Of a DNA stretch of 32,697 nucleotides, positions 20,816 to 30,037 are shown piece by piece (the stretch's first letter is position 1; each line of letters begins with the position of its first letter). The notes below the pieces were generated by a model. That model was not told where the DNA came from. It saw only the letters and a program-made list of their open reading frames with translations, and did no database searches. The stretch lies in sequence record SRR31156797_21941, one strand, 5' to 3'. The translations under genes were made by a program, and so were the position numbers.

Positions 20816-22090
20816 TTATGTCACCTCATCTTTGGCCTTATCAAACTTATCATATAGCTTCTCATTTACAATATCTTCCAACTGCTCCACAGTATCCCAG
20901 ATGTCTTGAAAAGTAGTGTATAGAGGTGTTATTCCAAGTCTTATATTATCCGGCTCGCGGAAGTCAGGAATTACAGTCTTACCGCCTATTTTTGGATCAA
21001 TGAGTGCCTTGCAAATACGATACGCTTCGGGATGTTTTAGCGATATATGTGAACCTCTTTGTGCACTTTCAGCTGGTGATCCTAGTGAATAACCTAATTC
21101 CTGTAGTTTCTCTTTATAAAGTTGAATCAACAATTCTGTTTGCTGTATACTCTTTAATCGAATTCTATCCATTCCTGCTTCCAACATAATTTCCACCGCT
21201 GGCTCAATAGCAGAAAGGGAAAGCAAAGGTGGCGTTCCGGCTAGAAATTTACGGATTCCTTTAGCAGGTCTGTATTCTAATCCAAACTCAAAGGGGTTAT
21301 CCTCTCCAAACCATCCCCAGATTGGTGATTCTAGTTTTTCCTGCAAATCTTTACGCACATACAAAAACGCTAATGAACCGGGTCCACCGTTTAAATATTT
21401 GTACGTACAACCAATGGCTAAATCCACATTACAACCGTTTAAATCAACAGGAACAGCTCCCACAGCATGACTCAAGTCCCAAAGTATTAGTGCACCACTT
21501 TGATGCGCCATATCGGTAATAGCTTTCATATCATACATATAGGCACTTTTAAAAACTACATGTGAAAGTGTTACCAGTGCTGTATTGGAATCAATTAACT
21601 GCTCGTATGTTTCAATTGGCACTAGAATGCCATCTTTAGATTCTGCCAGTGCAATTTGATGCTTGTTGCCCAAAACCTCTCTTAGCCCCTGTAGCAAATA
21701 AATGTCTGAGGGAAAGTTTAGATTATCACTGACAATTTTAGAACGATCAGACCTTAATTTTAAAGCACCATACGCCAATTTAAAGAGATTTACAGAAGTT
21801 GAGTCGGCCACAATAACTTCATCGGGCTGAGCGCCTATTAAGCGGGATATTTTAGCGGCAATTTTCTGAGAACGATCATACCAACCTTCGTTCCAGCTGC
21901 GTATTAAACGATCGCCCCACTCCTTCTCAATCACCTCATTCATTCTTGGTTTAGTTGCAATTGGAAGCACTCCTAAAGAATTACCATCCATATAAATCAA
22001 ATTGGGATTATTTAATTCAAAACGTGATTTGAAATCTGCTAATTCATCTTCATTATCAAGACTTTGAATATTTTTTAAACTTAATGGCAT
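20816..22090 (-). CDS. kynU: Kynureninase (PLP-dependent)
   Basis: IYMDGNSLG, WGDRLIRSWN, DSTSVNLFK, NFPSDIY, WDLSHAVG, GCTYKYLNGGPG, GWFG, RGSH. Confidence 0.94.
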   Translation of the reverse strand: MPLSLKNIQSLDNEDELADFKSRFELNNPNLIYMDGNSLGVLPIATKPRMNEVIEKEWGDRLIRSWNEGWYDRSQKIAAKISRLIGAQPDEVIVADSTSVNLFKLAYGALKLRSDRSKIVSDNLNFPSDIYLLQGLREVLGNKHQIALAESKDGILVPIETYEQLIDSNTALVTLSHVVFKSAYMYDMKAITDMAHQSGALILWDLSHAVGAVPVDLNGCNVDLAIGCTYKYLNGGPGSLAFLYVRKDLQEKLESPIWGWFGEDNPFEFGLEYRPAKGIRKFLAGTPPLLSLSAIEPAVEIMLEAGMDRIRLKSIQQTELLIQLYKEKLQELGYSLGSPAESAQRGSHISLKHPEAYRICKALIDPKIGGKTVIPDFREPDNIRLGITPLYTTFQDIWDTVEQLEDIVNEKLYDKFDKAKDEVT

Positions 22091-22135
22091 ACTTTATAAT
22101 TTTATCTTAACTTTCCAACGCTATATAATTATTTC

Positions 22136-22360
22136 ATTGTCAAATTGATTTATTGTTAAATTGTTGTTTGTCATTTATTCTTATTATTACCATAATCCAG
22201 ACTAAGAAACAATATTTAATTTCATAATCATTCTATTCAATTAAACTTAACAAGAAATCCACTTTAAACAATTCAACAATTTAACCATTCAACCATTCAA
22301 CTAATCAACCATCCAACCAATCAACCATTCAACCAATCAACAATTCAACCATTCAACCAT
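22136..22360. repeat. Degenerate octamer tandem arrays in inverted orientation
   Basis: Twelve TCAACCAT-like units at 22265-22360 and four complementary ATTGTTAA-like units at 22136-22167. Confidence 0.85.
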
Positions 22361-22425
22361 ACATTCTTTTTTCAAATAAATATTTTAGAATAAATTCTTT
22401 CTATTTCTATCATTAAACAAAATCA

Positions 22426-23106
22426 CTACTTCAATATCGTTTTAGCAACCGGTGTTAACAATTCTGCCCAACGTCTGTACATCTCACCTGATGGGTGCAG
22501 GCCATCATTAGCAATCAGCTCAGGACTATCAGCAGCTTCCCTTGAAATGGGTGTAACATCCACATAGTATACTCCCATATTCTCGGCAATTTGTTTATTA
22601 ACAGCATTGTATGCATCAATCTCCATGGCAATCTGTTCTCTATCGCGACCTTCTGCAAATGGTGTAACTCCCCAATCAGGAATTGAAATTACAATGACAC
22701 GCTTCACATCTCCGCCGGCAAAATCAATGGCTTGTTGCAAAATGGGTTGAAATTCCTCCTCGTAATTCTCCACTGATCGCCCTCTGTATTGGTTATTCAC
22801 TCCAATCAGCAATGTAACTAAATCATAGGAACCCGAGATATCTGCTTGTAGGATTCCATTCACAAGCTCGTCAGTTGTCCAACCTGTAGTAGCGACAATT
22901 TTTGGAGAATCAACTACTATTCCGCAGGTTTTCAATGAGGTAACTAATTGAACTGGAAAACGTTCCTGTTCTGAAACACTTTGCCCAATTGTATAAGAGT
23001 CTCCAAGAGCAAGGTAAGTGAATTGCTTATCTGTTTTAGTCTTTTCTTCTGAACATGCCATGGTAAAAGAAATTATCGCAATAAGTATGATTTTTATTAT
23101 TTTCAT
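22426..23106 (-). CDS. SGNH/GDSL hydrolase lipoprotein
   Basis: Lipobox TMAC; YLALGDSYTIG, ATTGWTT, LLIGVNNQYRG, DGLHPS. Confidence 0.92.
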   Translation of the reverse strand: MKIIKIILIAIISFTMACSEEKTKTDKQFTYLALGDSYTIGQSVSEQERFPVQLVTSLKTCGIVVDSPKIVATTGWTTDELVNGILQADISGSYDLVTLLIGVNNQYRGRSVENYEEEFQPILQQAIDFAGGDVKRVIVISIPDWGVTPFAEGRDREQIAMEIDAYNAVNKQIAENMGVYYVDVTPISREAADSPELIANDGLHPSGEMYRRWAELLTPVAKTILK

Positions 23107-23160
23107 TTGTCTACACTTAAATTTTATTTATTAATAAGTATTTAACAAGCTGAAATATAT

Positions 23161-24765
23161 TTAGTTTTTCAAAAATTTAATGTTATACACCTTATTCCCG
23201 TTATTCATTTTTAAATGGTAAATCCCGGGATAAAAATTTGCAACCTGTATGGTATTTGAACCATTTAACATATTAGTTGTGACCACTCTGCCCATTTCAT
23301 CATAGATAATATAACTTACACTACCACTGTATTTCTTTAACTTTACACTTATTATATTTTCTGCTGGATTAGGATAAATTGAAACATCATCCAAAGATGC
23401 TGAAAAATGATCAAGAACTCCAACATTTTCATCATAGGAAACTAAAAAGTAATCAATGCCAACCGTATTTAAACTAAGATCCTCAAAATTTATTTGTGTT
23501 GTATACCATCCGGTAGTAATTACCTTAGTTCCAATTTGAATAATATCTGTGGATGCATCTGAGCCATCTCCCTCGCTTGTCCTGGTAAATTCCAATCTAC
23601 CGGTTTGATCAAATTTTGCTATAAATACACCACCATCCTCGGATTTAACTTCTTTTTCTTCCTCGCCAATAGTAAAATTGCCCTGGTAATTTCCTGTCCA
23701 ATAAGCATTATGATTCTCATCGCAATAAACTGCTCTACCTTTATTCATCCCTTCTCCTTTTATGGTTCTAACCCATTGCCAGTTCAAATTTTCATCAAAT
23801 GAAGCTACATAGCCGTCATCAGTATCATCTACACTGGAAATATTCATAGGTTCATCGCCTGGAAAATAACCGGTTCCTGTCACACGACCGGCTACAAAAC
23901 CTTTTCCTTCAGAATTTACAGAAATACTATTTACCGCAGCAGTATGATAATTCAAGTCAACAACTTCTCCATCCTCATTATACTTGGCAACAAAAGTACC
24001 TTCACCACCTAGCAATATTCCACCAAAATTGGCACCTGGTCCAGCTACACCTGTTACATAGCAATTTCCCAATTGGTCAGCAGCAATCTTAAATCCATAT
24101 TCAATTGCCTCACTACCCGCATTTGCAGCCCACTCAAAATTCAAATTTTCATCATAACTAGCAATAAATACATCGCTTCCTCCAAATGAAGTTATAGAGT
24201 CAACTTCAGAAAATGTCAATGTACTTTGAAACCATCCCGTAACAATCACCCTATTGTCTTTTCCAACCGCAAGCCCATATCCAAGCTCAGATTCGATACC
24301 TTCGGGATGAGTAAAATCAATAATATTGCCATTAGGGTCAATTTTTACGATATAGATATCCCATCCGCTGGCAAAATGGCTTTCTCCTAAAACATCAAAT
24401 TGTCCGGTAAAATAACCTGATACAAACGTATTTCCATGGCTATCACAATCTATGGATAAGGCTACTGTTTCTTCATTACACCCAAAAACTGTGCACCATT
24501 GATATTCGCCATCATTATTGTACTTTACAACAAATACATCAGAAATGCCATTTATTGAAAACACATCACCTTCAATATACAATGTATCAGTATACTGTCC
24601 TGTAATAAAAATGTCATTATCGCTGCTTTTAGCTAAATCCCAGGCGCGCTCCATTCCAGGTCCACCTCCACCTACCAACCAGTTTAGCTCTTGCCCATAA
24701 AACACTGTATTTAAAGTACAAACAATAATAAATAAAAGTCCTTTTTTAAAAATTTGAGTCTTCAT
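23161..24765 (-). CDS. Secreted beta-propeller (SBBP-like repeat) protein with T9SS type A C-terminal domain
   Basis: Signal peptide; repeated D-x-F-V/I-x-K-Y-x-x-x-G and GNxxVTG units; C-terminus IYPNPAEN...GIYHL...KFLKN. Confidence 0.82.
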   Translation of the reverse strand: MKTQIFKKGLLFIIVCTLNTVFYGQELNWLVGGGGPGMERAWDLAKSSDNDIFITGQYTDTLYIEGDVFSINGISDVFVVKYNNDGEYQWCTVFGCNEETVALSIDCDSHGNTFVSGYFTGQFDVLGESHFASGWDIYIVKIDPNGNIIDFTHPEGIESELGYGLAVGKDNRVIVTGWFQSTLTFSEVDSITSFGGSDVFIASYDENLNFEWAANAGSEAIEYGFKIAADQLGNCYVTGVAGPGANFGGILLGGEGTFVAKYNEDGEVVDLNYHTAAVNSISVNSEGKGFVAGRVTGTGYFPGDEPMNISSVDDTDDGYVASFDENLNWQWVRTIKGEGMNKGRAVYCDENHNAYWTGNYQGNFTIGEEEKEVKSEDGGVFIAKFDQTGRLEFTRTSEGDGSDASTDIIQIGTKVITTGWYTTQINFEDLSLNTVGIDYFLVSYDENVGVLDHFSASLDDVSIYPNPAENIISVKLKKYSGSVSYIIYDEMGRVVTTNMLNGSNTIQVANFYPGIYHLKMNNGNKVYNIKFLKN

Positions 24766-24794
24766 TTTTCTAAAATCGAATAATGATTAGGCTA

Positions 24795-24802
24795 CAAAGC
24801 TA
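24795..24802 (-). promoter_or_regulatory. Bacteroidetes -7 promoter element for the SBBP-like gene
   Basis: TAGCTTTG on the minus strand, 29 nt upstream of the ATG at 24765. Confidence 0.55.
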
Positions 24803-24844
24803 ACATTAAATTCTTCTCGGTTACTTAATTAGAATTATTCTATA

Positions 24845-24858
24845 TTGATGAATATCAT
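24845..24858. promoter_or_regulatory. FNR/CRP-like binding box
   Basis: TTGAT-GAAT-ATCAT, one mismatch to TTGAT-N4-ATCAA, centred about 42-44 nt upstream of the predicted transcription start of the glycyl-radical operon. Confidence 0.5.
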
Positions 24859-24880
24859 TTTTTAAAAATCAAAAATGCCC

Positions 24881-24888
24881 TATATTTG
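24881..24888 (+). promoter_or_regulatory. Bacteroidetes -7 promoter element for the activase-hypD operon
   Basis: TATATTTG matches TAnnTTTG; an ATG lies 7 nt downstream. Confidence 0.65.
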
Positions 24889-24895
24889 ATCCTCT

Positions 24896-24967
24896 ATGTC
24901 AGCATACTATACAAATAAACTTTCTCATGCTGAAGGCAAATGCCTCTTCGAATGCTGGATTTGCTAG
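24896..24967 (+). CDS. Putative leaderless leader peptide MSAYYTNKLSHAEGKCLFECWIC (23 aa, C-terminal CX3CX2C)
   Basis: ATG...TAG translated by hand; starts at the predicted transcription start; below the ORF-track size cutoff. Confidence 0.45.
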   Translation: MSAYYTNKLSHAEGKCLFECWIC

Positions 24968-25003
24968 TACCCCCCTTTTTGTTTCTTCTAAACTCATAAA
25001 CTG

Positions 25004-25042
25004 AATAGCACATAAGCACAATATTCATACTTATGTACTATT
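25004..25042 (+). other. Leader hairpin upstream of the activase
   Basis: AATAGCACATAAG (25004-25016) / CTTATGTACTATT (25030-25042), 13 bp with one mismatch. Confidence 0.55.
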
Positions 25043-25080
25043 AATCGCAAACAAAAATAACGTTTTACGTACACATTAAC

Positions 25081-25875
25081 ATGAAGGGGATAATATTCGA
25101 TATTAAACATTTTGCAGTCCACGATGGACCCGGGATACGCACCACTGTATTCTTAAAAGGATGCCCATTAAATTGCTGGTGGTGCCATAATCCGGAAAGT
25201 CAGAAACCGGAACCGGAAATTTATCAGCAAACACGTAAGCTTGACGATATTGATTTTTCAGAAACGAAAACTCTCGGTTATACTATTGATTCTTCTGAAT
25301 TGATACCAAAAATAACCGGAGATAAAGTTTTTCACGATGAATCATCTGGCGGGGTTACTTTTTCAGGTGGTGAGCCTTTACTTCAGTTTAATTTTCTTTC
25401 GGAGTTGCTGGAAAAAAGCAAAAAAGAAAACATACACACTGCAGTAGATACAACTGGTTATGCATCACCCAAAATATTCCAGCAAATCGCGCAAAAGGCG
25501 GATTTGTTCTTGTTCGACTTAAAAATTATAGACAGTGAACTTCATGAAAAATATACCGGAGTTCATACCAAACCCATCATCAACAATTTGAGGTGGTTAG
25601 ATGATAACAATATCGATACAATCATTCGATTTCCTGTTATTCCCAACATCACAAATACCAAAGAGAATATCAGTCAAATGCTGGTTTTTCTGGAGTCTCT
25701 GCAAAACATTAATCGCATTGACATACTGCCCTATCACAACATCTCCAATACTAAGTACAAAAGATTCAAAATTGAAAATAAGATGGAAGATGTACCGGCA
25801 TTTGAAGAGGAAGATATGTACCGTTTAAAAGAAGAATTTGAAAATATTGGATTTATCGTTTCGATCGGAGGATAA
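25081..25875 (+). CDS. Glycyl-radical enzyme activating enzyme (radical SAM), HypD activase, lacking the ferredoxin insert
   Basis: HDGPGIRTTVFLKGCPLNCWWCHNPESQ, GGVTFSGGEPLLQ, LFDLK, IRFPVIP, LPYH. Confidence 0.93.
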   Translation: MKGIIFDIKHFAVHDGPGIRTTVFLKGCPLNCWWCHNPESQKPEPEIYQQTRKLDDIDFSETKTLGYTIDSSELIPKITGDKVFHDESSGGVTFSGGEPLLQFNFLSELLEKSKKENIHTAVDTTGYASPKIFQQIAQKADLFLFDLKIIDSELHEKYTGVHTKPIINNLRWLDDNNIDTIIRFPVIPNITNTKENISQMLVFLESLQNINRIDILPYHNISNTKYKRFKIENKMEDVPAFEEEDMYRLKEEFENIGFIVSIGG

Positions 25876-25894
25876 ATCTTTAAAATCTATTATC

Positions 25895-28261
25895 ATGACA
25901 CCAAGAATTGAAAAATTACGATCACAAAGCTTAAACGCTGTAAATACATTAAGCAGCGAAAGAGCAAAACTCATTACACGGTTCTATAAAGAGACTTATA
26001 ATATGCATATGCCCGAACCAATTCGAAGGGCACGTGCATTTAAATATCTGCTTACGCACAAAGAGATTTGCATCAATGAAGGTGAATTAATTGTAGGAGA
26101 ACGCGGTCCTGCACCTAAAGCCACACCGACTTATCCTGAGGTTAGCTTACACTCATTAAAGGATTTAGATGTGCTCAATGATCGACCTAAAGTAGGTTTC
26201 AAGGTAGATAAAGAGACGCGTGATCTATATGAAAACGACATCATACCATTTTGGAAAGGCAATTCAATGCGTGATAAAATGTTTGCGCAGCTTCCTGAGG
26301 AATGGATAAATGCATATGGCGCAGGTGTTTTCACAGAATTTCAAGAGCAACGCGCACCAGGTCATACTGTAGCCGGAGAGAAGATTTTCAAAAAGGGAAT
26401 GAATGCGCTTAAAAAAGAGATTGCAGAAGCCAAATCAAAACTGGATACAATTAACAATCCCGACGACATTGATAAAAAGTATGAATTGGAAGCAATGGAG
26501 ATTGCTGCTGAGGCCATTGTACTTTATGCTCACCGACATGCTGCTAAACTGGATGAAATAAACAACCAAACAACTGATCCTCAAAGAAAAGCAGAACTCA
26601 CCAAAATGGCTGCAATTTGTCGTAAAGTACCAGCTGAAGCTCCCGAAACTTTCCATGAAATGCTTCAGCACTATTGGTTTATTCATGTTGGAGTAATTTC
26701 AGAAGTTAATCCATGGGACTCTTTTAATCCCGGCAGATTAGATCAGCATTTATTTCCTTTTTACAAAGCAGAAACTGAAAATGGGACTTTGAATAAAGAG
26801 TCGGCTGTGGAAATACTAGAATCGTTTTGGGTGAAATTCAATAACCACCCTGCTCCTCCGAAAATGGGTATCACAGCTCTTGAAAGCAATACCTATACAG
26901 ATTTTGCACTCATTAATTTGGGTGGACTAAAACCAGATGGATCAGATGCTGTCAATGAATTAAGTTTCCTACTGCTGGATGTGATTGAAGAAATGCGCAT
27001 TTTGCAGCCAAGTTCTATGGTTCAAATAAGCAAGCACAATCCGGATAGTTTTGTACATCGTGCACTTAAAATCTCCAAAACGGGATTTGGACAACCTTCT
27101 ATTTTCAATACAGATGCCATTATTCAGGAACTTTTGAATCAAGGTAAAGATTTAATAGATGCTAGAAACGGTGGTGCCAGTGGCTGTGTAGAAACCGGTG
27201 CTTTTGGCACAGAAAGTTATATACTTACAGGTTATTTCAACTTGAATAAAGTATTGGAGGTTACTTTCAATAATGGTAAAGATCCAAGAACAGGAAAAAC
27301 GATTGGTTTAAAAACCGGGGAAATGGATTCGTTCCAATCTATGGATGAATTACTTTCTGCATATCGCAAACAATTACAGCACTTCATTGATATTAAAATT
27401 TCGGGGAATCTCATTATTGAAAAACTCTACGCAGAAAAGCTTCCAGTACCATTTTTATCATTGATCATTGAAGATTGTATTTCCAACGGAACAGATTACA
27501 ATGCTGGAGGTGCCAGATATAATACGTCTTATATTCAAGGTGTTGGACTAGGCAGTATTACCGATAATCTTACGGCTCTTCAATACCATGTATTTGATCA
27601 ACAAAATTACAGCATGTCTCAAATGATGGAAGCTATTCAAAACGATTTCAAAGGTTTTGAAGAGATGCGCTACCAACTTGTATATGAGACTCCTAAATAC
27701 GGTAATGATGATGACTATGCTGATAAATATGCTACAACCATATTCAACTATTTTTACGAATCGGTTGATAATCGTCCAACATACAGAGGCGGTAAGTTTC
27801 GCATTAATATGCTACCTACCACAAGTCATGTGTATTTTGGAAGCGTAATTGGTGCTATGCCTGATGGCAGAAAAGCCGGAGAACCGCTATCTGAAGGTAT
27901 TAGTCCATTCCAGGGCGCCGACAAAAAAGGACCAACCGCTGTATTAAAATCTGCCTCAAAAATTGATCATATTAAAACTGGAGGAACACTTCTGAACCAG
28001 AAGTTTGCACCATCATTTTTCAAAGATGATTCAGCTATCAATAAACTAGGATATCTGGTTCGAAGCTATTTCCGCATGGATGGTCATCATATTCAGTTCA
28101 ACGTTGTAAGCGCTGATACACTGCGCGACGCACAAAAGCATCCAGAAAAATATTCAGACCTAATAGTGCGTGTAGCAGGTTACAGTGATTATTTCAACGA
28201 TCTGGGTGAAGACCTGCAAAATGAAATTATTCGCAGAACAGCCCATGAAGAAGCTTATTAA
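25895..28261 (+). CDS. hypD: trans-4-hydroxy-L-proline dehydratase (glycyl radical enzyme)
   Basis: Motifs recalled from clostridial HypD: FTEFQEQRAPGHTV, WDSFNPGRLDQHL, PAPPKMGIT..ESNTYTDF, SGCVE (thiyl Cys), MLPTTSH, DHIKTGGTLLNQ, IVRVAGYS (glycyl radical). ATG at 25895. Confidence 0.9.
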   Translation: MTPRIEKLRSQSLNAVNTLSSERAKLITRFYKETYNMHMPEPIRRARAFKYLLTHKEICINEGELIVGERGPAPKATPTYPEVSLHSLKDLDVLNDRPKVGFKVDKETRDLYENDIIPFWKGNSMRDKMFAQLPEEWINAYGAGVFTEFQEQRAPGHTVAGEKIFKKGMNALKKEIAEAKSKLDTINNPDDIDKKYELEAMEIAAEAIVLYAHRHAAKLDEINNQTTDPQRKAELTKMAAICRKVPAEAPETFHEMLQHYWFIHVGVISEVNPWDSFNPGRLDQHLFPFYKAETENGTLNKESAVEILESFWVKFNNHPAPPKMGITALESNTYTDFALINLGGLKPDGSDAVNELSFLLLDVIEEMRILQPSSMVQISKHNPDSFVHRALKISKTGFGQPSIFNTDAIIQELLNQGKDLIDARNGGASGCVETGAFGTESYILTGYFNLNKVLEVTFNNGKDPRTGKTIGLKTGEMDSFQSMDELLSAYRKQLQHFIDIKISGNLIIEKLYAEKLPVPFLSLIIEDCISNGTDYNAGGARYNTSYIQGVGLGSITDNLTALQYHVFDQQNYSMSQMMEAIQNDFKGFEEMRYQLVYETPKYGNDDDYADKYATTIFNYFYESVDNRPTYRGGKFRINMLPTTSHVYFGSVIGAMPDGRKAGEPLSEGISPFQGADKKGPTAVLKSASKIDHIKTGGTLLNQKFAPSFFKDDSAINKLGYLVRSYFRMDGHHIQFNVVSADTLRDAQKHPEKYSDLIVRVAGYSDYFNDLGEDLQNEIIRRTAHEEAY

Positions 28262-28265
28262 TGTT

Positions 28266-28335
28266 GATTTGATGATTTGGTCATTCGTTTATTTGACTGG
28301 ATAATCAAATAAACAAATAAGCGAATAACCAATCA
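28266..28335. repeat. Inverted octamer repeat hairpin (4+4 units) directly after hypD
   Basis: GATTTGAT GATTTGGT CATTCGTT TATTTGAC / ATCAAATA AACAAATA AGCGAATA ACCAATCA. Confidence 0.7.
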
Positions 28336-28346
28336 AAAATAAAACT

Positions 28347-28424
28347 ATGAAAACTATAATAAATGAAAAAAAAATTAACCAAATCAAACTACATACATTA
28401 AGCCCTATTCCGCTATTACTATAA
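28347..28424 (+). CDS. Possible leader peptide MKTIINEKKINQIKLHTLSPIPLLL (25 aa)
   Basis: ATG preceded by A-rich AAAAATAAAACT; TAA stop followed 7 nt later by a strong hairpin. Confidence 0.3.
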   Translation: MKTIINEKKINQIKLHTLSPIPLLL

Positions 28425-28431
28425 ACAATTC

Positions 28432-28464
28432 GCTATGTAGTACTGGAAATCAGTACTGCATAGC
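28432..28464 (+). other. Strong stem-loop in the pepP leader, without a U-tract
   Basis: GCTATGTAGTACTG-GAAAT-CAGTACTGCATAGC, 14 bp with one G-U pair. Confidence 0.75.
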
Positions 28465-28503
28465 ACTACCCAAATCCTATTAATAAAATTTAAAATCACC
28501 GCT

Positions 28504-29898
28504 ATGTTTAGTAAAGAAACCTATATCAACCGTAGAAATCAACTTAAATCGCAATTCAAATCAGGTATTCTCCTTTTCATGGGAAACGAAGAGAGCTCAA
28601 TGAATTATGAGGATAATACTTACCGCTTCAGACAAGACAGTTCGTTTTTGTATTATTTTGGGTTGGATCAGCCCGGATTAAATGGGGTTATTGATTTGGA
28701 TGAAGACAAAGATTACATTTTCGGTGATGATTTAACCATTGACCACATTGTGTGGATGGGTTCACATCCAACTATCAAAGAAAGCAGCCAAAAAGTTGGC
28801 ATAACCAACACCGGTAGACTTTCCGAAATGGAAAACCTTTTGAAAGTAGGTAAATATAAGAACAGAAAAATTCACTTTTTACCTGCTTATCGTCCGGAGC
28901 ATAAAATCAAACTTTATAATTGGCTTGAAATATCTGTAAATGAAACAAATAACCATGCTTCAACTGAGTTAATTGTAGCTGTTGGTGAACAGCGCAATAT
29001 CAAATCAGCAGAGGAAATTGAGCAATTGGAGCAAGTAGTAAGCGTAACCGCTGATATGCACTTTGCGGCCATGCGATATGCACGTCCCGGAATGACCGAA
29101 GCACAAGTAGCTGCAAAAGTGCACGAAGTAGCACAAGCAGCAGGAGGCGACATCTCCTTTCCTATTATTGCTACCATTAATGGACAAACACTACATAACC
29201 ATTACCATGGCAATACAATCAAAGAAGGTGATTTGTTTCTATTGGATGCAGGTGCTGAGAACCAGCTCCACTATGCCGGAGATATGTCCAGCACTTTCCC
29301 TGTTTCACCAACATTTACTGACCATCAGAAAGATATATACCAGATTGCCTTAAATGCGCATAATGCAGCAATAGACATGCTTAAACCGGGCATCAATTTT
29401 AAGGAAGTCCATTTTACCTGTGCCCGCACCATATTTAACGGATTGAAAGAGATGGGATTTGTAAAGGGTGATACAGAAGAAGCCATTCATGCAGGAGCTC
29501 ATGCCCTATTCTTCCCATGCGGCACAGGCCATTTAATGGGATTGGATGTGCACGATATGGAAAATCTGGGCGAACAATATGTTGGATATGGTGGCGAACC
29601 CAAAAGTACGTTATTCGGTATTAAATCGCTTCGTTTAGGTCGTGAATTAAAACCAGGATATGTGTTGACAATCGAGCCGGGTATCTATTTTATTCCTGAA
29701 TTAATTGATATGTGGCAAGCAGAAAAAAAATTCGCGCAATTCATTAATTACGAGAAAGTAAATGAATACCGAAATTTTGGAGGAACCAGAAACGAAGAAG
29801 ATATTTTAATCACAGAAAACGGACATAAAATATTAGGAAAACCATTGGCCAAAAGCATTGAAGATGTTGAAGCTGAAAGGGCGAAGGCGTTTGGGTAA
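28504..29898 (+). CDS. pepP: Xaa-Pro aminopeptidase/prolidase, M24B family
   Basis: YRFRQDSSFLYYFG, LHNH, LLDAG, YAGDMS, GHLMGLDVHD, TIEPGIYF, RNEED metal-binding motifs. Confidence 0.92.
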   Translation: MFSKETYINRRNQLKSQFKSGILLFMGNEESSMNYEDNTYRFRQDSSFLYYFGLDQPGLNGVIDLDEDKDYIFGDDLTIDHIVWMGSHPTIKESSQKVGITNTGRLSEMENLLKVGKYKNRKIHFLPAYRPEHKIKLYNWLEISVNETNNHASTELIVAVGEQRNIKSAEEIEQLEQVVSVTADMHFAAMRYARPGMTEAQVAAKVHEVAQAAGGDISFPIIATINGQTLHNHYHGNTIKEGDLFLLDAGAENQLHYAGDMSSTFPVSPTFTDHQKDIYQIALNAHNAAIDMLKPGINFKEVHFTCARTIFNGLKEMGFVKGDTEEAIHAGAHALFFPCGTGHLMGLDVHDMENLGEQYVGYGGEPKSTLFGIKSLRLGRELKPGYVLTIEPGIYFIPELIDMWQAEKKFAQFINYEKVNEYRNFGGTRNEEDILITENGHKILGKPLAKSIEDVEAERAKAFG

Positions 29899-29925
29899 AA
29901 ATAACAAAGCAAAAAAAATCGAAGA

Positions 29926-30037
29926 CGTCATTACAAGGAGGAACGACGAAGTAATCTGGTTCGTTTTTGCAATTACCAGATTGCTTCGTCGCCACCTCCT
30001 TCACTTCGCTACGGCGGTCTGGCTCCTCGCAATGACG
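29926..30037. repeat. CGTC-type REP-like palindromic element, copy 2
   Basis: CGTCATTACAAGGAG-GAACGACGAAGTAATCTGG...CCAGATTGCTTCGTCG...CTCCTCGCAATGACG, nested inverted repeats. Confidence 0.8.

Follow-up and report, generated by a model that had tools for sequence, protein, structure and literature searches.

A 23-codon open reading frame (ORF) lies at the head of the operon for trans-4-hydroxy-L-proline dehydratase (hypD) and its glycyl-radical-enzyme activase in a 32,697-nucleotide (nt) stretch of DNA from sequence record SRR31156797_21941, referred to here as the window. Comparison with related genomes indicates that this ORF is almost certainly a functional regulatory leader peptide. The leader family heads the activase-hypD(-aminopeptidase P) operon and, in some genomes, separate operons of proline-specific peptidases as well. 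The ORF is conserved, its peptide is under selection, it is linked to hypD, it recurs in regulon-like paralogous copies, and a tract of distinctive base composition follows its stop codon. It is somewhat probable, though far from assured, that the peptide acts in cis, as a member of an undescribed Bacteroidota-specific family, by ribosome arrest of the TnaC/SpeFL type with shielding of the transcript from Rho.

The elements of the leader region in the window are as follows.
24881..24888, plus strand: Bacteroidota-type −7 promoter box TATATTTG (TAnnTTTG), read directly, 7 nt before the leader ATG
24896..24967, plus strand: leader ORF of 23 codons plus TAG, read and translated as MSAYYTNKLSHAEGKCLFECWIC
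24935..24964, plus strand: C-terminal core G14-K15-C16-L17-F18-E19-C20-W21-I22-C23, taken from the codon tables of the family

The ORF, its peptide, the box and the spacing of 7 nt between the G of TATATTTG and the ATG at 24896 had all been given in an original prediction made for this stretch, and all were verified on the sequence. TAnnTTTG is the −7 consensus of Bacteroides promoters. An exact TAnnTTTG box precedes an in-frame leader ATG in 45 of 59 leaders, and it is kept in the alignment of the window with its relatives. In 34 of the 45 box-bearing leaders the box lies 15-25 nt from the ATG, so that a short 5′ untranslated region is the norm of the family; tighter spacings were seen in the window (7 nt), at its closest relative L001 (7 nt) and at L120 (4 nt). 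The window holds a single leader copy. As 112 ORFs of at least 20 amino acids (aa) overlap positions 22000-30000, the window ORF by itself is unremarkable. The earlier caution that a short ORF may arise by chance thus stands for the ORF alone, whereas its conservation exceeds chance.

Conservation of the leader and selection on its peptide

Conservation was surveyed in 80 loci anchored on the activase and drawn from species-representative genomes. The search was for a short ORF ending in [FY]ECW, one or two further residues and a stop, without a requirement for L, and three stray matches away from the activase were disregarded. A leader precedes the HypD activase in 32 of these 80 loci, the window not counted, and 31 of the 32 carry a Bacteroidota label. 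The exception, L010, is labelled Thiohalospira sp.; its leader is typical of the Bacteroidales, its activase and that of the window are 59% identical, and the contig may be mis-binned. The leader was found in none of the other 41 loci of this set labelled outside the Bacteroidota (Ignavibacteria, archaea, Calditrichia and others). Three more Bacteroidota loci have a diverged leader, for example MYTRLGRGLYSCLIF in a metagenome-assembled genome (MAG) of Bacteroides sp. At L001, a Salinivirgaceae MAG whose activase is 84% identical to that of the window, the 72-nt ORF shows one synonymous change while the flanks diverge.

A pattern census was carried out on 401 genomes of the order Bacteroidales, with the reversed pattern as control. 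The strict DNA pattern, [FY]ECW[IM][C/F/W/L]-stop, gave 40 matches in 39 genomes against 1 control match, and a relaxed pattern gave 64 matches in 60 genomes, again against 1. hypD is present in 140 of the 401 genomes. All 39 strict-pattern genomes are hypD-positive, and relaxed-pattern leaders occur in 58 of the 140 hypD-positive genomes compared with 2 of the 261 hypD-negative ones. One of these two, G009, has a true leader before a gene for dipeptidyl peptidase IV (DPP-IV); the other match (L173 in G098) was rejected as probably due to chance, as it has neither a start codon nor the G-K-G context. A match in G034 was set aside because it ends in TGG, not in a stop. With a 14-nt degenerate pattern, 13 matches were obtained in five genomes, with one leader-like ORF per genome, each at hypD. 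Among 30 loci located by pattern, the distance from the leader to the activase downstream is 53-210 nt in 26; other genes follow in 3 and the contig ends too early in 1. Variant leaders upstream of the activase were found in 31 of 40 inspected hypD-positive genomes that the strict pattern had missed.

For the codon tables, 69 unique activase-anchored leaders were collected with a regular expression that fixed L and C; in one of the 69 rows (L140) a chance ORF was taken and not the true leader, MITDNPNILYHDFGKGLYECWIT. Entropies at the first, second and third codon positions of the core are 0.41, 0.37 and 1.23 bits. At the conserved Leu all six codons (CTN and TTR) are used, Glu is encoded by GAG and GAA and Ile by ATT, ATC and ATA, synonymous variation is also seen at Phe/Tyr and Gly, and K/R swaps occur through many codons. 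The codon-position entropies and the six Leu codons point to selection on the peptide. L17, F/Y18 and C20 are invariant in the family, W21 and I/M22 nearly so, and C16 and C23 variable; L was present in every leader found with the looser first expression, in which it was not required. The family signature reads G-[KR]-G-L-[FY]-[E, rarely A/S/H/D]-C-[W, rarely L/R]-[I/M/L]-x-stop. In most leaders the core is followed by one residue and the stop, sometimes by an extra residue. Of the 45 leaders with an assigned box and start, 38 have an ORF of 21-26 aa. The N-terminal half is variable, and the conserved residues lie in the C-terminal part, which is of exit-tunnel length. Alignment of the upstream regions, suggested as a check in the original prediction, thus showed start, frame, length (mode 23 aa), C-terminus and stop position to be kept, with mostly synonymous variation. 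The conserved start, frame, length, C-terminal sequence and stop support the proposal, already made there, of a leader peptide heading the activase-hypD operon.

The same conservation could in principle reflect an RNA or DNA element, such as a structured RNA, an operator or a protein-binding site, that is open in one frame by coincidence. The stretch TTCGAGTGCTGGAT is highly conserved at the nucleotide level in many loci, and the window and L001 are nearly identical over the ORF, as expected of such an element. Against it stand the three-base periodicity, with third positions 3-fold more variable, the encoding of Leu by both CTN and TTR, and the retention of start codon, frame and stop. Scans with Rfam gave no family in 13 leader-bearing loci or in 5 further, leader-less loci; in the window stretch just a 16.7-bit snoRNA chance match was obtained, on the minus strand at 25235-25295, beyond the leader-activase spacer. 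Given the codon periodicity and the lack of an Rfam family, a pure RNA element was rejected, and we regard this explanation as very improbable.

A separate observation concerns loci L045, L051, L153, L154 and L170, where no leader lies directly upstream of the activase and a co-oriented gene ends at the activase start. The conserved region of this gene reads through a HEFGH...GLADEY motif, by which it would be a zinc metallopeptidase. No leader was seen upstream of the HEFGH gene in L045 or L051.

Leader copies at peptidase genes and the cysteine motif

At eight leaders the first gene downstream is not the activase, and all eight interpretable cases precede genes for proline-specific peptidases:
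G160: S37/S28 peptidase, then activase and hypD in one unit
G268: DPP-IV
G009: DPP-IV
G101: DPP-IV and aminopeptidase P
G229: DPP-IV and aminopeptidase P
G312: aminopeptidase P
G335: aminopeptidase P and C69 dipeptidase
G343: aminopeptidase P

The leaders of G101 and G229 are near-identical and hence not independent. In G268, G312 and G335 the leader is a second one besides that at hypD, with a different N-terminus and the same core; in G343 it lies on a different contig from hypD. We take DPP-IV, aminopeptidase P and the S37/S28 families to be specific for proline. The probable third gene of the window operon, an M24B aminopeptidase, belongs to the same family as the first gene after independent leader copies elsewhere. 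By their position, these extra copies indicate a regulon.

A peptide that is released and works in trans as a small protein, for instance one that regulates or partners with HypD, its activase or the peptidases, or that serves in signalling, would be equally compatible with conservation at the peptide level, and trans-acting leader peptides exist, as described for peTrpL (PMC7298713). However, several genomes have two copies with differing N-termini, each directly 5′ of a different operon, and the stop position and the C/U-rich tract behind it (see below) are fixed in every copy, a pattern of cis elements. Moreover, conservation is limited to the last ~10 residues, about the length of the exit tunnel, and the leader has no signal peptide. 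Action in trans thus appears quite unlikely.

The original prediction had stressed the last eight residues of the window peptide, a radical S-adenosylmethionine (SAM)-like CX3CX2C motif resembling the cluster motif CPLNCWWC of the activase (25162-25185, beginning at codon 28), and had proposed an Fe-S sensor or an accessory factor for the glycyl-radical enzyme. The DNA quoted there for both motifs is correct. By hand count, 16 of 24 nt are identical between the two, an identity that is mostly forced because the Cys and Trp codons are common to both. The spacing itself did not hold up across the family. The CX3CX2C ending occurs in 2 of the 69 unique leaders, those of the window and of its close relative L001. 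Where the window has its first Cys (C16), 44 of the 69 leaders have G, 10 H, 7 R and 6 C, and at the last position 31 have C and the remainder one of F, Y, W, Q, I, L, T, A, N, R, S or H. The middle Cys is the sole invariant one, so the expected conservation of three Cys was seen for the middle position alone.

In this explanation the peptide, as a sensor leader or a small accessory protein, would bind an Fe-S cluster through CX3CX2C or respond to Fe-S, Cys or redox state, and would so tie expression of the glycyl radical enzyme to cluster availability. In its favour, HypD and the activase, as Fe-S and radical enzymes, are sensitive to oxygen, the window and L001 have the motif, and one Cys occurs in all 69 leaders, although the collecting expression demanded it. 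A Cys-containing, metal-sensing peptide encoded by an upstream ORF (uORF) is also known, CruR, with a CXXC pair and copper as signal (as outlined in PMC12360218). But a single Cys is unable to ligate a 4Fe-4S cluster, and the leader, 23 aa long, has no Pfam or NCBIfam match, the radical SAM domain being in the next gene. Copies also stand before genes for secreted or periplasmic-type peptidases with no radical SAM or glycyl-radical-enzyme partner, which argues against an Fe-S or activase accessory role and toward the substrate pathway, hydroxyproline and proline peptides, as the signal. An Fe-S function is therefore highly unlikely.

A short Cys-containing ORF beside a radical SAM gene is also the typical layout of a ribosomally synthesized and post-translationally modified peptide (RiPP), in which case the peptide would be a precursor modified by the adjacent enzyme. 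The neighbour is, however, a standard glycyl-radical-enzyme activase (TIGR02494, above cut-off) paired with an equivalog-level HypD. In 7 of the 8 peptidase-first loci no radical SAM gene occurs in the stretch examined, and in G160 the activase follows the peptidase. With an activase-type neighbour and no obligate pairing with a maturase, a RiPP precursor was rejected as hardly credible.

The sequence after the stop codon and a possible arrest mechanism

Two elements follow the leader in the window.
24968..24997, plus strand: tract rich in C/U and poor in G that begins right behind the stop, 80% pyrimidine, with 9 more C than G (C minus G +0.30 per base)
24968..25080, plus strand: spacer of 113 nt from the leader stop to the activase, with no canonical intrinsic terminator and no Rfam match

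The composition of the tract is a property of the family. Leaders have 25.7% C and 9.7% G in the first 30 nt past the stop, whereas 205 long ORFs of these loci have 14.9% C and 15.1% G at the corresponding place (Mann-Whitney p 3e-19 for C-G, 6e-24 for pyrimidines), and the same contrast is seen against 92 upstream regions. By its composition the tract is a candidate Rho loading (rut) region or ribosome-shielded segment. Insertions in the N-terminal domain of Rho are particularly common in Bacteroidota, as stated in a review (PMC12360218). A terminator scan of the window region returned 0 sites; a scan for sigma-70-type promoters is uninformative for Bacteroidota. The window spacer folds with a minimum free energy of −12.5 kcal/mol, and spacer folds are lineage-specific. 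In the Rikenellaceae loci L024-L026 a GC-rich hairpin with a T-run begins 9 nt past the stop; those of L025 and L026, visible in the folds, were missed by the hairpin-plus-T-run scan. Pairing of the tract with the downstream start was also considered (−4.7 against −3.8 kcal/mol for mismatched pairs, permutation p 0.0014); being weak and maybe driven by composition, it was not used as evidence.

In the mechanism that we infer, which extends to translation, arrest, ligand identity, direction of regulation and Rho dependence, the transcript would start a few nt after the TAnnTTTG box and the leader would be translated. The conserved C-terminus, G-K/R-G-L-F/Y-E-C-W-I/M-x, would act in the ribosomal exit tunnel, and the ribosome would arrest at or beside the stop codon in dependence on a small molecule of the pathway, the likeliest signal being free trans-4-hydroxy-L-proline or proline, or an X-Pro/X-Hyp peptide. 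The arrested ribosome would cover the C-rich, G-poor tract and keep Rho from loading or, in the Rikenellaceae variant, keep the terminator hairpin from forming. With the signal present, transcription would run on into the activase, hypD and peptidase genes; with the signal absent, the ribosome would be released and transcription attenuated. A nascent-peptide arrest leader is proposed because this anatomy matches the logic of TnaC and SpeFL.

Several observations weigh against this mechanism. Unlike in TnaC, the last residue varies widely and each of the three stop codons is used, so that the mode of arrest, if any, must differ. The invariance of L and C in the 69-leader set is partly built into the regular expression. 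Among 40 inspected hypD-positive genomes that the strict pattern missed, the region immediately before the activase shows no leader in 8 and an adjacent activase is lacking in 1, and several leader-less activases are preceded by co-oriented genes. The fold predicted for the window spacer is absent from L001. Hairpin-plus-T-run sites were flagged in just 7 of 59 spacers (none in the window), mostly far from the stop, and the Rho step thus draws on base composition alone. Some spacers measure just 39-60 nt, short for a rut region unless it extends into the next gene. The ligand, finally, is a guess from gene content alone.

The scarcity of hairpins also bears on another explanation, a generic uORF that couples translation to transcription or feeds ribosomes, or an attenuator responding to starvation for Cys or Trp codons, of the trpL or mycobacterial polycysteine type. 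The leader is indeed the first ORF of the transcript and lies near the promoter, and leaderless, Cys-rich and Cys-responsive uORFs are described in mycobacteria (bioRxiv 10.1101/834739). A generic uORF, however, would not keep a sequence of 9-10 residues across families through synonymous change. The leaders have a single conserved Cys codon and a single Trp codon and nothing in tandem, most spacers show no alternative terminator and antiterminator hairpins, and the genes under control deal with hydroxyproline and proline peptides rather than with the supply of Cys or Trp. For lack of codon runs and of such hairpins in most spacers the starvation attenuator was rejected, and the explanation as a whole is unlikely.

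Within the arrest mechanism a narrower proposal can be made, which we offer as possible rather than probable: a peptide sensing hydroxyproline (or proline or X-Hyp peptides), arresting with any C-terminal residue and any stop codon, and defining a Bacteroidota regulon for collagen and proline-rich peptides that would comprise HypD, its activase, DPP-IV, aminopeptidase P and S37/S28 peptidases.

Spacers of unusual structure were seen in two groups of loci. In L022 (2162-2896) and L023 leader and activase are about 720-730 nt apart, about 724 nt in L023, and the sequence between them is rich in repeats, folds strongly and has no long ORF. The leader of L028 is near-identical to theirs and its spacer is 92 nt; the long L022/L023 spacers (Rikenellaceae/Bacteroidota) may reflect an insertion. 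The spacers of L004, L006, L007, L008, L010, L016 and L019 share an inverted repeat, GATTAACGA ... TCGTTAATC, whose arms are separated by about 40-60 nt; immediately before the activase start they also have a conserved block, CATTCGTTAATC.A.ATTCGAAAATAAAC. This repeat, absent from the window, could be a long hairpin or a protein-binding palindrome.

Known leader peptides and the genes of the window

TnaC, SpeFL and CruR are uORF peptides that stall the ribosome at their own stop codon and thereby shield a Rut site, as outlined in PMC12360218. Like TnaC, the leader is an ORF of ~24 codons at the 5′ end of an amino-acid catabolic operon (PMC12360218, PMC8450073 and PMC8429421, for TnaC). Likewise, conserved residues occupy the part that would lie in the exit tunnel, and a candidate Rut-type region, proposed here from base composition, adjoins the stop. 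The function of TnaC is described as dependent on the position of the stop codon, and in the leader family that position is conserved. Unlike TnaC, the leaders occur in several copies per genome as a regulon, and the host phylum differs: to our knowledge, Bacteroidota do not use Shine-Dalgarno pairing for translation initiation. The variable last residue and the three stop codons also set them apart from TnaC, which ends in Pro and which inhibits release factor 2 at UGA (PMC8450073).

With SpeFL, the ornithine-sensing leader of speF-potE, the family would share a pathway metabolite that stalls the ribosome at the uORF stop and so masks a Rut site (described for SpeFL in PMC12360218, and proposed here), with the substrate inducing its own catabolic enzyme. 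The sequences are unrelated, the leader studied here is shorter, and hydroxyproline or proline as ligand is a guess. CruR (Bordetella cruR-bfrG) is likewise a Cys-containing leader peptide, whose copper-related stalling at the stop shields a Rut site (PMC12360218), and it is the closest precedent to the metal or redox idea discussed above. It needs a CXXC pair and a RAPP arrest motif, whereas the leader family has one conserved Cys, no RAPP and genes that are not metal-related. The mycobacterial polycysteine ORFs, as described in bioRxiv 10.1101/834739, are similar in that a short and possibly leaderless first ORF with Cys codons governs the operon genes behind it. They differ in that they have Cys runs and respond to Cys supply; in the window leader the Cys codons are non-consecutive and just one of the three is conserved, and the operon has no connection with Cys metabolism. 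The mini-hairpin arrest peptide PepNL of E. coli, a nascent peptide that blocks termination (PMC11890864), is likened to the leader from its description there, not by sequence.

With E values up to 10 allowed, the window peptide matched no Pfam or NCBIfam family, and no homology to TnaC or SpeFL was seen in this search, whose second query was an offset fragment of the L009 leader; both collections presumably contain TnaC and SpeFL models. None of 9 leader peptides looked up by exact match occurs in a collection of about 15 billion proteins, so that the leader is invisible to annotation and the signal of the whole regulon is missed. Among the enzymes of gut microbes HypD is described as prominent and widely distributed (Huang et al. 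2018, PMC6219649), with Bacteroides vulgatus and Parabacteroides distasonis named as carriers, and the passages of that paper on HypD contain no 'leader', 'riboswitch' or 'upstream'. A literature search, in which supplementary material was not covered, yielded no paper describing the leader, in agreement with the statement in the original prediction that no example was known, and none tying hydroxyproline dehydratase, or Bacteroidetes with arrest peptides, to a leader peptide. If the arrest mechanism is correct, it would explain how Bacteroidota switch on the catabolism of hydroxyproline and proline peptides. It would add a metabolite-sensing nascent peptide to the short list that includes TnaC, SpeFL and CruR as named in PMC12360218. 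A leader that senses hydroxyproline, proline or X-Hyp peptides would form a new class of amino-acid-sensing nascent peptide after TnaC and SpeFL, the first in Bacteroidota as far as the literature was searched. The leader would also offer a compact ribosome-based sensor part for the engineering of Bacteroides.

The genes around the leader in the window are the following.
23161-24765, minus strand: gene for a type IX secretion system (T9SS)-sorted protein, divergent, upstream of the leader
25081..25875, plus strand: glycyl-radical-enzyme activase, radical SAM, 264 aa, short form (Radical_SAM and Fer4_12; TIGR02494)
25895..28261, plus strand: hypD, trans-4-hydroxy-L-proline dehydratase, a glycyl radical enzyme (NF043068; PDB 6vxc)
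28504..29898, plus strand: M24B Xaa-Pro aminopeptidase of the aminopeptidase P type (Peptidase_M24 and AMP_N)

The activase scores 267 bits with TIGR02494 (cut-off 174, passed) and 288 bits with the HypD-activase profile NF043069, under the cut-off of 425. The NF043069 match falls into two stretches, with profile positions of about 63-98 skipped, and the window activase apparently lacks the ferredoxin-like auxiliary-cluster insert. Most of the 80 activase relatives align from about residue 1-3 to about residue 260-264 of the window activase. HypD reaches the equivalog level of NF043068 (1227 bits, cut-off 1100) and matches PDB 6vxc with an E value of 1.8e-296; its start is likely the ATG at 25895. 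The M24B aminopeptidase is probably the last gene of the regulated unit. In G312 (L124:3970-5010) a Pro_racemase-family gene (E 1.9e-109) follows hypD, which fits an operon for handling hydroxyproline and proline. The gap of 242 nt between hypD and the aminopeptidase gene in the window (28262-28503) contains an inverted repeat, GCTATGTAGTACTG...CAGTACTGCATAGC, and an ORF of 25 aa unrelated to the leader.

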